DNA from: a virus
Length of the DNA: 64,000 bases
Direction: 5' to 3' (one strand)
Virus record (IMG/VR): IMGVR_UViG_3300030104_002421
Coordinates: 32,001-96,000 of that record
Under the pieces are notes generated by a model, which was not told the DNA's origin, did no database searches, and worked only from the letters and a program-made list of their open reading frames with translations. Position numbers and translations under genes: made by a program. Of the stretch, positions 26,803 to 32,231 are shown in pieces. Position 1 is the first letter of the stretch; the number at the start of each line of letters is the position of its first letter.

Positions 26803-28059
26803 ATGGAAAAGAAAATTGACCCGCTATTAGAAGAGCAATGGGAGGTATTTCAAAAAGAAAACCCAAGTGCGACATTTCGACACATAGATGAGACAAAACT
26901 AAAAGATAACTTAACAAAAGAATTATCTTATGCTGCCAATATGTCAGTAGAAGAATATACACTATATCAAAAATGGTGTGAAGTTAAAAACAAATATCCT
27001 GCTCAAGTAGTAAACACATTGTTTGGCGAAGAAAGTCAATTAGTAGATTTATCAAAAGACAAATTATTAGTACATGTTAAAAACAATATATGGGCACCTA
27101 AAGACCCTATGGATTTTGAGAAGTTAGAACCAGAACTAATCTATACAAAAGATGACCCTAGTTACCCACAATTGTGGAATGCAATAAGAACATTTGCCTC
27201 TACAATGAAGAACAATAACAATATAGGTCGTAATTTAAACTTTATAGTAAGAGACAAACCAACAAAGAAATATCTAGGTGTCATTTGTATATCAAGTGAT
27301 TTTTTAGATTTAACACCTAGAGATAATTACATAGGTTGGGATAGAGAAAGAAAAACTAAAAAGATGATTAATCATACTGCTATTGGTAGTACGATTGTTC
27401 CATTACAACCACTAGGTTTTAATTATACTGGTGGTAAGTTACTGGCATTATTATGTCTATCTGATAAAGTACAAGAAACATGGAAAAAAGAATATGGTGA
27501 TACAATGGTTGGTGTTACAACAACAAGTCTCTATGGTAGTTTTAGTCAGTATCAAAATCTAAAATACTGGAAGAAAAGAGGTCATAGTGCAGGTAGTGTA
27601 TCATATGAAGCAACGAAACCTACAATACAAATGTTAAGAGATTGGTTAAAAGAAAATCATACTAGAAAATTCTTTGAATGGTATAGTGCTACAAAACCTA
27701 CAGGACAACCTTATAAGAGAGACCATAGAAATAGAAGTCATACATTTGCTTATGGTAAACTAGGTATACCTAAAGAAATTACAAAGTCAGCACATAGTAG
27801 AGGTATCTATTTCAGTACACTATACGACAATACATGTGAGTTTTTAAGAGAAGAAATAGAAGAAGATAAACTAAAGAAATCATTTGATAGTAGTATTGAA
27901 GGACTTGTAAATGTATGGAAGAACAAGTATGCTAGTAAGCGTATAAAATCGCTGATTAACCAATCTAGGACAAACATGGAATCACTTTATTATGATGACT
28001 TGATACATCTATCATGGGAAGAAACAAAAAATAAGTATCTAAAACAAGTAGGAAGATGA
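26803..28059 (+). CDS. DUF4338/DruA-like protein, copy 1
   Basis: GRNLNFIVRD, RDNYIGW, VPLQPLGFNYTGGKLLA, TTTSLYG, GHSAG. Confidence 0.8.
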   Translation: MEKKIDPLLEEQWEVFQKENPSATFRHIDETKLKDNLTKELSYAANMSVEEYTLYQKWCEVKNKYPAQVVNTLFGEESQLVDLSKDKLLVHVKNNIWAPKDPMDFEKLEPELIYTKDDPSYPQLWNAIRTFASTMKNNNNIGRNLNFIVRDKPTKKYLGVICISSDFLDLTPRDNYIGWDRERKTKKMINHTAIGSTIVPLQPLGFNYTGGKLLALLCLSDKVQETWKKEYGDTMVGVTTTSLYGSFSQYQNLKYWKKRGHSAGSVSYEATKPTIQMLRDWLKENHTRKFFEWYSATKPTGQPYKRDHRNRSHTFAYGKLGIPKEITKSAHSRGIYFSTLYDNTCEFLREEIEEDKLKKSFDSSIEGLVNVWKNKYASKRIKSLINQSRTNMESLYYDDLIHLSWEETKNKYLKQVGR

Positions 28060-30672: not shown

Positions 30673-31866
30673 ATGAAACTAAATGATAAACAAAAAACAT
30701 TTGTTGAGACTGCTTTCAAGGAGTTTGGTACAGATACCATTACTAGAAAACAAGTCCAAGAAATTGAGACTAAATTTAACTTAACTGGTAACAGTTGGTT
30801 AGTAAATTCAGGAGACTACAAAGTGGGTCGTGGCGTATATAAATTACCTGTTAACGGTATGGTTAACCCCTCTAAAAATGTTAAACAGAATTTAAAACCT
30901 AAACCAGTTATTGAACAACCACAAGAAAAGGTTACTCTACAATCTACTGAAAGTACCGCTGATAACTTGGTACCTTCTAAAGAGGCGACCTTTGTATCTT
31001 TTGGTAACTACAAAGATATTAAGAATATTGTTAAATCAAAAATCTTTTATCCTACTTTTATTACTGGTTTATCTGGTAACGGTAAAACTTTAAATATAAT
31101 ACAAAGTTGTGCTGAGTTAAAAAGAGAATTAATTAGAGTTAATATAACAGTTGAAACAGACGAAGACGATTTACTTGGTGGTTTCAGACTTGTAAATGGT
31201 GCAACAGTATGGCATGATGGTCCTGTTGTTGACGCTATGAAAAGAGGCGCTGTTCTATTATTAGACGAAATTGATTTAGCGTCTAATAAGATTATGTGTT
31301 TACAACCAATACTTGAAGGCAACGGTGTCTTCCTTAAAAAGATTGGTAAATTTATAGAACCACAACCTGGTTTTAATATCATTGCTACTGCCAATACTAA
31401 AGGTAAAGGTAGTGATGACGGAAGATTTATTGGTACTAATATACTCAATGAAGCATTCCTTGAAAGATTTCCTGTTACTTTTGAGCAACAGTATCCTCCA
31501 ATTAAAGTAGAGCAAAAAATACTTGAAAATGTTATGGATGCTTATAACTTAAAAGATAGTAAATTTACAGAAAACCTAGTTAAATGGGCAGATGTAATTA
31601 GAAAAACTTTTTATGATGGCGGTGTTGATGAAATAATCGCTACTAGAAGACTAGTACATATCATTAATGCTTATGCAATCTTTAAGAACAAATTAAAATC
31701 TGTTCAAGTATGTGTAAACAGATTTGATGATGATACTAAAAACAGTTTCCTAGATTTGTATTCTAAAGTGGACTCAGGAGTTGACCTAGAAGACTTATCA
31801 GGAAATATCAATGATGATGAGATAATAATGGAGAAGGAAGTTGATCCAATCAACCAACCAATCTAG
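30673..31866 (+). CDS. cobS: CobS/MoxR-like AAA+ ATPase
   Basis: GLSGNGKT, DEDDLLGG, LLLDEID, ATANTKG, NEAFLERF. Confidence 0.9.
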   Translation: MKLNDKQKTFVETAFKEFGTDTITRKQVQEIETKFNLTGNSWLVNSGDYKVGRGVYKLPVNGMVNPSKNVKQNLKPKPVIEQPQEKVTLQSTESTADNLVPSKEATFVSFGNYKDIKNIVKSKIFYPTFITGLSGNGKTLNIIQSCAELKRELIRVNITVETDEDDLLGGFRLVNGATVWHDGPVVDAMKRGAVLLLDEIDLASNKIMCLQPILEGNGVFLKKIGKFIEPQPGFNIIATANTKGKGSDDGRFIGTNILNEAFLERFPVTFEQQYPPIKVEQKILENVMDAYNLKDSKFTENLVKWADVIRKTFYDGGVDEIIATRRLVHIINAYAIFKNKLKSVQVCVNRFDDDTKNSFLDLYSKVDSGVDLEDLSGNINDDEIIMEKEVDPINQPI

Positions 31867-31897
31867 TATGAAATTCATTCATAATGTAGACCTCGTA

Positions 31898-31924
31898 GGT
31901 GGCGGATTTCATAAACCCGCCACC
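31898..31924 (+). terminator. Hairpin between cobS and the tRNA
   Basis: GGTGGCGG...CCGCCACC followed by a T-rich stretch. Confidence 0.6.
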
Positions 31925-31940: not shown

Positions 31941-32014
31941 GCGGGTTAAGTATAAAAGTAATACGCTTTGCTACCAGTAAAGAGAACTTTGGGCAGTACA
32001 AAGGATCCGCTCCA
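31941..32014 (+). tRNA. Non-canonical tRNA-Gly, anticodon ACC
   Basis: 74-nt cloverleaf: acceptor GCGGGTT/GATCCGC, D stem GTAT/ATAC, anticodon stem CTTTG/TAAAG with loop CT-ACC-AG, T stem CTTTG/CAAAG, discriminator T, encoded CCA; D and T loops are atypical. Confidence 0.8.
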
Positions 32015-32027
32015 ATAAAATAAAGAT

Positions 32028-32231
32028 ATGACTATAACAGTAATAGTAAAAAATAACAATGTAGAGAAAGCGATTAGAACGCTTAAGAAAAAAGTTTTAA
32101 AAGAAGGTCTCTTAAAAGAAATTAAACAAAGGCAGTATTACGAAAAACCTAGTTTAAAGAGACAAAGAAAACATAAAGAGAACCTAAAGCGTGTTGCTAA
32201 ATTAAAGAAGCAGCGTGAAAGGGAATCTTAA
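32028..32231 (+). CDS. rpsU: Ribosomal protein bS21
   Basis: V.V..NNVEKAIR.LKKK...EG...E.K.RQYYEKPS.KR. Confidence 0.9.
   Translation: MTITVIVKNNNVEKAIRTLKKKVLKEGLLKEIKQRQYYEKPSLKRQRKHKENLKRVAKLKKQRERES

Follow-up and report, generated by a model that had tools for sequence, protein, structure and literature searches.

What is the 74-nt, tRNA-like element that lies between a cobS-like gene and rpsU in a marine phage genome, and what would the phage use it for? The element was found in a 64,000-nt stretch of viral DNA (the window, by which we mean that whole stretch), which covers positions 32,001-96,000 of the 146,188-bp, 99% complete IMG/VR record IMGVR_UViG_3300030104_002421. The record is that of an ocean phage of SAR11 (Pelagibacter) and a relative of myophage HTVC008M, with 76.6% nucleotide identity over the cobS-rpsU region. 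A preliminary description, made from the window sequence alone, had read the element as a tRNA-Gly(ACC) with altered D and T loops and had proposed that it is kept by selection as a glycyl donor that avoids the ribosome. We find that the element is a genuine, conserved tRNA-Gly gene that has gone without annotation, and that it is one of a large class of phage tRNAs, not remarked on before, whose elbow is of the A18-G55 type. As to its role, we interpret it with moderate confidence as a decoding tRNA-Gly(ACC) that serves mainly GGU codons.

The gene, with its CCA encoded, occupies positions 31941..32014 on the plus strand, where all of its parts also lie. The assignment draws on the sequence itself, on the minimum free energy (MFE) cloverleaf, on a family covariance model (R1, described below) and on an orthologue in HTVC008M. 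Reading the sequence directly gives an acceptor stem (31941-47 paired with 32004-10) of G1-C72, C2-G71 and G3-C70 followed by G-C, G.U, U-A and U.G, a 4-bp D stem (31950-53 with 31961-64), a 5-bp anticodon stem (31966-70 with 31978-82), a variable region of 4 nt, a 5-bp T stem (31987-91 with 31999-32003), the discriminator U73 at 32011 and CCA at 32012-14. The anticodon ACC (A34 C35 C36, at 31973..31975) is read within the loop CTACCAG. The structural hallmarks of a tRNA are all present (stems of 7, 4, 5 and 5 bp, anticodon and T loops of 7 nt, U33, a purine at position 37, and G53-C61), as is the complete identity set for glycyl-tRNA synthetase (GlyRS), namely G1-C72, C2-G71, G3-C70, U73, C35 and C36. 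Direct reading thus confirmed the 74-nt cloverleaf with encoded CCA, ACC anticodon and GlyRS identity set of the preliminary description. What departs from the rule is the universal tertiary set (U8, G18, G19, U54, U55, C56, A58), of which G19 and C56 alone are retained; the others are replaced by A8 (31948), A18, G54, G55 and G58. The D loop (31954..31960) reads AAAAGTA, with A at the G18 position, and the T loop (31992..31998) reads GGCAGTA, that is, G54 G55 C56 A57 G58 U59 A60.

Single-sequence methods gave a mixed picture of this element. The MFE structure from RNAfold is the cloverleaf, at -18.9 kcal/mol, and the associated fold statistic is weak (z = -1.87; 8 of 200 shuffled sequences folded equally well). 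ARAGORN called 0 tRNA genes over the 64-kb window. In Rfam, the element matched nothing at the gathering score, and the tRNA model RF00005 gave no match even at E <= 10. Because the fold statistic was weak and both scanners were negative, comparative data were needed.

The nearest comparison is HTVC008M. At the orthologous site, ARAGORN does call a tRNA-Gly(acc), though it misses the window copy. When the two sequences are aligned, the anticodon stem and the T stem prove to be wholly replaced, with every pair compensated, and there is no difference in the acceptor, in the CCA end or in the UACCA at the center of the anticodon loop. The preliminary description had suggested looking between cobS and rpsU of related myoviruses for such compensatory changes. 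Published tables give HTVC008M 0 tRNAs (PMC7029224). Pelagibacter phage Mosig has a family tRNA-Gly(ACC) as well, between hsp20 and gp45. There the database annotation places an overlapping coding sequence for a 31-aa hypothetical protein, Mosig_000011 (MT647606.1 7774-7869; L373:2984-3079), which is most likely a mis-annotation of the alternative-elbow tRNA-Gly(ACC). The prediction that standard scanners would miss this gene was therefore a good one, both for ARAGORN and Rfam on the window copy and for the existing records of HTVC008M and Mosig.

To define the family, we scanned IMG/VR with D-arm and loop patterns and passed the matches through a cloverleaf filter, which yielded 83 distinct, ungapped relatives of 74 nt. 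These patterns were used in place of an exact 15-mer scan of the tRNA 3' end, which had returned mainly chance matches. Among the 83 members, 96% of cells were paired, both sides had changed in 18 of the 21 pairs, and the covariation score was 0.76, as against 0.20 for shuffled alignments and at most 0.13 for slid registers. The cloverleaf filter itself demanded pairing, which inflates the paired percentage, and for that reason we also examined the raw matches to a pattern made of the two loops only. Strict cloverleaves made up 81 of these 101 distinct matches, and many of the listed failures were also tRNA-Gly-like, with a slightly shifted register. Covariance model R1, built from 40 members with the window copy and its sister left out, matched the window element over its full length at 79 bits (E = 6e-20) and had no other match in the 64 kb. 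The same model gives canonical phage tRNA-Gly 52-64 bits, which indicates that the family is homologous to ordinary tRNA-Gly. A pseudogene in decay was rejected because of the compensatory changes relative to HTVC008M and across the 83 members, and in this respect the earlier view of selection rather than decay was upheld.

The pairs G1-C72, C2-G71 and G3-C70 are at least 90% conserved in the family alignment, as are U33 and A37; G53-C61 is invariant, and U73, C35 and C36 do not vary when the Gly sequences alone are aligned. The window copy fits the family loop definition (D loop A(A/G)AAGUA, T loop N-G-C-R-N-U-A), and its combination of AAAAGTA with GGCAGTA is the commonest one (66/86). A8, which the preliminary description had listed together with the two loops, is indeed present and yet is not a family trait, since the near-universal U8 is kept in 81 of the 83 members and A8 occurs in the window copy and its sister only. 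The anticodon is ACC in 24 of the 83 aligned sequences, and the closest sister phage has TCC (UCC) at the same site.

BLAST against cultured phages found the module only in HTVC008M, in Mosig and in the tRNA-His of Streptomyces BE-cluster phages, and the matches in Lak phages were canonical tRNA-Gly. Across 185,579 prokaryote genomes (one per species), nine of ten matches to the Gly D-arm pattern were due to chance, which leaves this set essentially without cellular copies of the Gly family; the lone real match (L369) was a Gln-type member on a contig of an Acutalibacteraceae metagenome-assembled genome. The family therefore looks phage-restricted.

Two further sequences deserve mention here. 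Between the window copy and the sister (L199/L379; genomes 86% identical), a hand count gives differences at 12 of the 17 positions of the anticodon arm (31966-31982) and at 5 of 57 elsewhere. In the arm, every one of the five stem pairs is affected, and so are positions 32, 34 and 38; the differences reflect either recombination or fast compensated turnover. Separately, at L208:287-360 there is a Gly(GCC)-like sequence with the alternative elbow, in which the 3' strand of the acceptor has lost its pairing. Its array already includes canonical Gly(gcc) and Gly(tcc) genes, so that this may be a redundant copy in decay.

Are the altered loops a loss of the tRNA elbow, or a different version of it? 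A stringent cloverleaf scan over 2.7 Mb of loci gave 207 cloverleaves, whose D loops we cross-tabulated against their T loops. GG D loops occurred with TTC T loops in 119 cases. D loops of the form AxxAGTA occurred with xGC T loops in 73 cases, and other AG-type D loops without GG did so in a further 13, for an AG-type/xGC total of 86. There were no mixed types at all (0 with a GG D loop and an xGC T loop, 0 with AxxAGTA and TTC), and AG-type D loops such as that of the window copy were seen with G55 T loops only. The changes from G18 to A18 and from U55 to G55 therefore go together. G19 and C56 are invariant in the family, and the 15-48 pair shifts coherently, with G15 accompanied by U48 and A15 by A or C. 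As judged from these sequence comparisons, the altered elbow is a covarying alternative and not a loss.

The alternative elbow is found well beyond glycine. It also occurs on tRNAs with anticodons of 11 other classes (His, Gln, Thr, Ile, Asp, Phe, Arg, Ala, Glu, Trp and Met). All of these are standard bacterial decoder anticodons, and the discriminator bases match the anticodon class wherever examined. Phage transfer-messenger RNAs (tmRNAs) of this group are already known (PMC9004378), although we came across no comment on an elbow shared with tRNAs. The present phage encodes a permuted, two-piece tmRNA with the tag ANFNEYALAA at positions 117739-118041 of its own genome, outside the window (L375:432-696; Rfam tmRNA_permuted, 98 bits; alpha_tmRNA, 75 bits), and the T loop of this RNA, GGCAGUA, is that of the tRNA-Gly. 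The Rfam consensus T loop for alpha_tmRNA is GGCgGUA, and the D-loop analogue has AG in the alpha type where the general permuted-tmRNA model has GG. Since tmRNA is known to work with EF-Tu, RNase P and the ribosome, this elbow already serves an RNA of that kind in the host's own class. We take the elbow change, on the strength of these alignments, to be a general tRNA solution and not a glycine oddity. In a literature search of incomplete coverage, we found neither the elbow class nor a natural phage tRNA-Gly(ACC) described.

A cultured example is an annotated tRNA-His of Streptomyces phage Jay2Jay, which bears the alternative elbow (AAAAGTA/GGCAGTA) and lies next to a canonical tRNA-His; both genes are tRNA-His(gtg) (L246:1494-1666). 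The former is 83% identical to a marine phage tRNA-Gly over positions 8-60, which suggests that identity has switched inside this tRNA lineage.

The proposal of the preliminary description, that this is a chargeable Gly-tRNA that avoids EF-Tu and the ribosome and donates its glycine to cell wall, lipid, protein or DNA modification, bears directly on how well EF-Tu would bind it. All of the energies that follow are EF-Tu T-stem values predicted with the additive model of Schrader and Uhlenbeck (PMC3239215, Table 2). Alternative-elbow Gly tRNAs averaged -9.4 kcal/mol with ACC and -9.3 kcal/mol with UCC, and the window copy came to -9.1 kcal/mol. Bacterial tRNA-Gly class means are -10.8 to -11.0 kcal/mol, and canonical Gly tRNAs in the same phage arrays fall between -10.1 and -10.8 kcal/mol. 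The window copy is thus as weak as the non-proteogenic (NP) tRNA-Gly of Staphylococcus, at -9.5 kcal/mol. However, the 23 non-Gly alternative-elbow tRNAs follow their class means (r = 0.74, p = 6e-5), with a deviation of -0.13 +/- 0.43 kcal/mol, which argues that tRNAs of the elbow class are in general matched to EF-Tu, and so to translation. The weakness is confined to the Gly members of the class, and this Gly-specific deviation is the one solid argument for a glycyl donor. Pelagibacter itself has single-copy tRNA-Gln and tRNA-Thr that are equally weak outliers (PMC3239215), which mitigates the weak Gly T stems to some degree. The deviation nevertheless remains a genuine puzzle.

The staphylococcal comparison, on which the donor proposal had been modeled, holds in part. 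Like NP1-3 tRNA-Gly, the donors for FemX, FemA and FemB, the window tRNA lacks G18, has G55 (in the staphylococcal loops within TGC or TGT, and without pseudouridine), shows weak EF-Tu determinants in its T stem and keeps GlyRS identity (PMC7826273, PMC13443448, PMC3239215). Two more of its features could be read in the same direction: A34 might be the product of a relaxed decoding constraint in an A+T-rich genome, and C32-G38 could shorten the anticodon loop of the window copy. Staphylococcal NP tRNAs lack G19 as well as G18, whereas in the phage family G19 and C56 are invariant and can still pair. All of the NP species have UCC, which makes them duplicates of a proteogenic isoacceptor with that anticodon, and they are found alongside Fem transferases. 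Their elbow also contrasts with the phage version in that the latter serves many identities, including EF-Tu-tuned tRNAs of 11 other anticodon classes and tmRNA.

A donor would need a transferase, which might be a host enzyme or one of a novel type; none of the expected kinds is encoded by the phage. The domains FemAB (PF02388), Acetyltransf_6/FemAB-like GNAT (PF13480), Leu_Phe_trans (PF03588) and LPG_synthase_C/MprF-type (PF09924) were absent from the 99%-complete genome in a search whose controls responded. The host is a Gram-negative alphaproteobacterium, a kind of bacterium in which glycine interpeptide bridges are not known to occur.

How the anticodons are distributed also bears on the choice between donor and decoder. 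Among the loci examined that have two Gly tRNA genes, the two anticodons differed in 15 of 15 and UCC was always present, paired with GCC in 13 and with ACC in 2. In those last two loci (L323 and L349) the ACC partner has a canonical body, with a GG D loop, a T loop of TTCGAGT or TTCGAAT, and T-stem base pairs that we hand-scored from the same table at about -10.5 kcal/mol. The anticodon ACC therefore fills the slot of GCC and arose independently on two tRNA bodies. The staphylococcal NP tRNAs duplicate an anticodon, and a tRNA kept purely as a donor should do likewise, so that Gly pairs which are complementary and never redundant favor decoding. With the elbow shared across identities, the complementary anticodons, ACC on a canonical body and the missing transferase domains all opposing it, the ribosome-avoiding donor now seems an unlikely explanation.

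The phage's own genome has no second Gly tRNA. Elsewhere in it lie a canonical, G+C-rich tRNA-Thr(UGU) at 107935-108010, outside the window (L377; Rfam, 68 bits), and a 94-nt "tRNA-Arg(acg)" at 141839-141932 (L376). The latter, whose extra arm is long and whose T loop is unusual, is called by ARAGORN but finds no support in Rfam, and the call is probably false.

Codon usage in this phage suits an ACC anticodon. Glycine is encoded by GGT in 69% of cases, by GGA in 15%, by GGC in 12% and by GGG in 3%. T is preferred at the third position in two four-codon boxes only, those of Gly and of Arg CGN (CGT 50% versus CGA 39%); in the Ala, Val, Pro, Thr, Ser and Leu boxes, A-ending codons are preferred over T-ending ones. 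Loci bearing ACC have more GGT and less GGA than loci bearing UCC (p = 4e-4 and 7e-4, respectively), and for the remaining boxes the same comparison gave small T3 differences at most (p >= 0.018) and no A3 differences. The sister phage, at 86% nucleotide identity, has UCC and is equally GGT-rich, which means that the correlation between codon and anticodon is at least partly a lineage effect; we have weighted it weakly.

There is precedent for a functional tRNA of this type. An E. coli tRNA-Gly(ACC) mutant is described as active in elongation, and GlyRS as not reading position 34 (PMC4928997). In a mimic system, A34-U3 decodes nearly as well as G34-U3 (PMC6720975). The engineered tRNA-Gly(ACC) (Boren et al. 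1993, as cited in PMC4928997) was a mutant, whereas the window copy represents a conserved natural lineage in abundant marine phages. Natural tRNA-Gly(ACC) has been described as essentially absent from cells (PMC6720975); the literature speaks of it as "banished from nearly all organisms" and offers no explanation for this.

Several observations weigh against a decoding role, and we consider them together. The weak predicted T stems of the Gly members are one. A34 is otherwise avoided in decoding tRNA-Gly (PMC6720975, PMC4928997). C32 and G38 of the window tRNA could pair across the anticodon loop, and A8 replaces a base that nearly every relative retains. The percentage of paired cells in the family set was inflated by our filter, and the equal GGT richness of the UCC-bearing sister detracts from the codon argument.

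On our preferred reading, that of a decoding tRNA, host GlyRS would charge the phage tRNA-Gly and EF-Tu would deliver it to the ribosome, where A34 would form a Watson-Crick pair with U3 of GGU, the codon that accounts for more than two-thirds of the phage's glycine. A34 might remain unmodified, perhaps reading more of the GGN box, or it might be converted to inosine by host TadA. Within the elbow, the covarying A18-G55 would take the place of the canonical G18-Psi55 contact, and the outer G19-C56 pair would be retained; with that pair kept and its neighbor covarying, the L-shape should be preserved, as should the face that RNase P and the ribosome recognize. The altered T loop could no longer receive m5U54 or Psi55. 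The tRNA would be made together with the rpsU transcript and then freed by RNase P and 3' processing.

The position of the gene raises a different possibility, which we consider quite improbable: that it is a cis-acting, tRNA-like processing or stability element that gives a short-leader mRNA for ribosomal protein bS21, with the released RNA having no role of its own. The rpsU gene (32028..32231, plus strand; Pfam Ribosomal_S21, 1.1e-17) starts 13 nt past the CCA end and is probably co-transcribed with the tRNA. The tRNA-rpsU order is conserved in HTVC008M and in HTVC008M-like contigs (loci L115-L124 and L237), and in phage Melnitz a tRNA-Arg immediately precedes rpsU (PMC9004378). In Mosig, however, the order is absent and the tRNA lies away from rpsU, and most family members are found in other contexts or in tRNA arrays. 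For this reason, we reject a leader function as the main role. A mere processing signal would also have no need for conserved GlyRS identity, anticodon loop and CCA. If tRNA-punctuated release of the rpsU mRNA takes place, it is likely a side effect of a tRNA that functions in decoding.

Upstream of the tRNA, also on the plus strand, are a cobS-like AAA_5 ATPase gene (30673..31866; Pfam AAA_5, annotated as CobS in HTVC008M) and two noncoding features. The first is a 22-nt motif, CATTCATAATGTAGACCTCGTA (31876..31897), which is invariant relative to HTVC008M and occurs only once in the window. The second, read from the sequence, is an 8-bp G+C hairpin (GGTGGCGG/CCGCCACC, with an 11-nt loop) followed by a T-rich stretch (31898..31924). 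HTVC008M has a hairpin at the same place, with a different sequence and with pairing kept, and two contigs without the tRNA (L131 and L179) have a similar motif and hairpin upstream of rpsU. A simple terminator scan did not call the hairpin at 31898..31924, which either terminates cobS or forms part of a 5' leader. Taken together, the motif and hairpin (31876-31924) could be a promoter with a leader hairpin, a terminator or a processing site.

The window also encodes a DruA/DUF4338-like protein (26803-28059; Pfam, 4e-20). Its homologues number two in HTVC008M and are found in about 25 Synechococcus phages, and one cyanophage record names the DruA-homologous stretch "methylcarbamoylase mom". 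We considered this gene as a partner in tRNA-dependent DNA modification, one of the uses to which a glycyl donor might be put. BLAST with two family tRNAs gave no cyanophage matches; the Synechococcus phages thus carry the homologues with no family tRNA found in them by BLAST, we saw no coupling of gene and tRNA, and we rejected the candidate.

Why should a decoding tRNA have this elbow? One answer is that it does little decoding and acts instead as a decoy or sponge: a host toxin, nuclease or sensor directed at tRNA-Gly or at T loops would be titrated by it or would leave it intact. There is precedent for phage tRNAs that counter defenses aimed at tRNAs (PMC10264068, PMC11464382), and CRISPR-associated Schlafen (Cash) nucleases cut 5' of U55, with mutations of U54 or U55 abolishing cleavage (PMC13462974). 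The concentration of differences in the anticodon arm between the window copy and its sister would also be in keeping with such a conflict. On the other hand, against a nuclease that cleaves every T loop, one resistant tRNA is not enough to save translation, this phage also encodes a canonical tRNA-Thr, such a defense is not known in SAR11, and the complementarity of the anticodons favors decoding. We therefore regard a decoy with little decoding function as very unlikely.

Escape can also be combined with decoding. Our favored, and tentative, sub-hypothesis for the elbow is that it lets a decoding tRNA escape factors that recognize U54-U55, for example T-loop nucleases of the Cash/Schlafen type. 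Known nuclease-evading phage tRNAs (van den Berg et al. 2023, PMC10264068; the T5 tRNA that neutralizes PARIS, PMC11464382) likewise depart from the host consensus at nuclease-recognized sites. They differ from the window tRNA in that its change is a compensated pair in the D/T elbow and not in the anticodon loop, and in that the cognate defense is a proposal made here. More broadly, and just as speculatively, there may be a second tRNA-elbow design, used on at least 12 identities and on alphaproteobacterial tmRNA, that is translation-competent and invisible to readers of U54-U55 (the T-loop nucleases Cash/Schlafen and CdiA-CT, and also TrmA and TruB), with tRNA-Gly(ACC/ICC) having evolved independently on alternative and canonical bodies in SAR11-type phages, to decode their GGU-rich genes, against the near-universal avoidance of A34 in glycine tRNAs.

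Two other known RNAs help to place the window tRNA. With canonical phage tRNA-Gly(UCC), as found in T4-like and Lak phages, it has in common the 74-nt class I form, the GCGG...CCGC-U-CCA acceptor, U13.U22 in the D stem, the 4-nt variable region and the GlyRS set, and the likeness presumably extends to T4 tRNA-Gly itself. It differs in having A18, G54-G55, ACC and a weaker predicted T stem, and in being missed by ARAGORN and Rfam. The alphaproteobacterial two-piece tmRNA (RF01849) shares the T loop GGC(A/G)GUA and the AG of the D-loop analogue, but that RNA is an alanine acceptor that lacks an anticodon arm and has SmpB as its partner, whereas the window tRNA is a full cloverleaf with a glycine anticodon.

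These results add an unannotated tRNA gene to HTVC008M and Mosig, the reference SAR11 myophages. They also indicate that a whole class of phage tRNAs is systematically missed by scanners, which biases phage tRNA counts and host predictions that are based on tRNAs. A natural, conserved tRNA-Gly(ACC) opens the near-absence of this isoacceptor to tests in phage-host pairs that can be cultivated. Strict covariation of A18 with G55, across identities and in alphaproteobacterial tmRNA, provides a clean natural experiment on the elbow, and it suggests a new axis of phage-host conflict, one that centers on T loops rather than anticodon loops.

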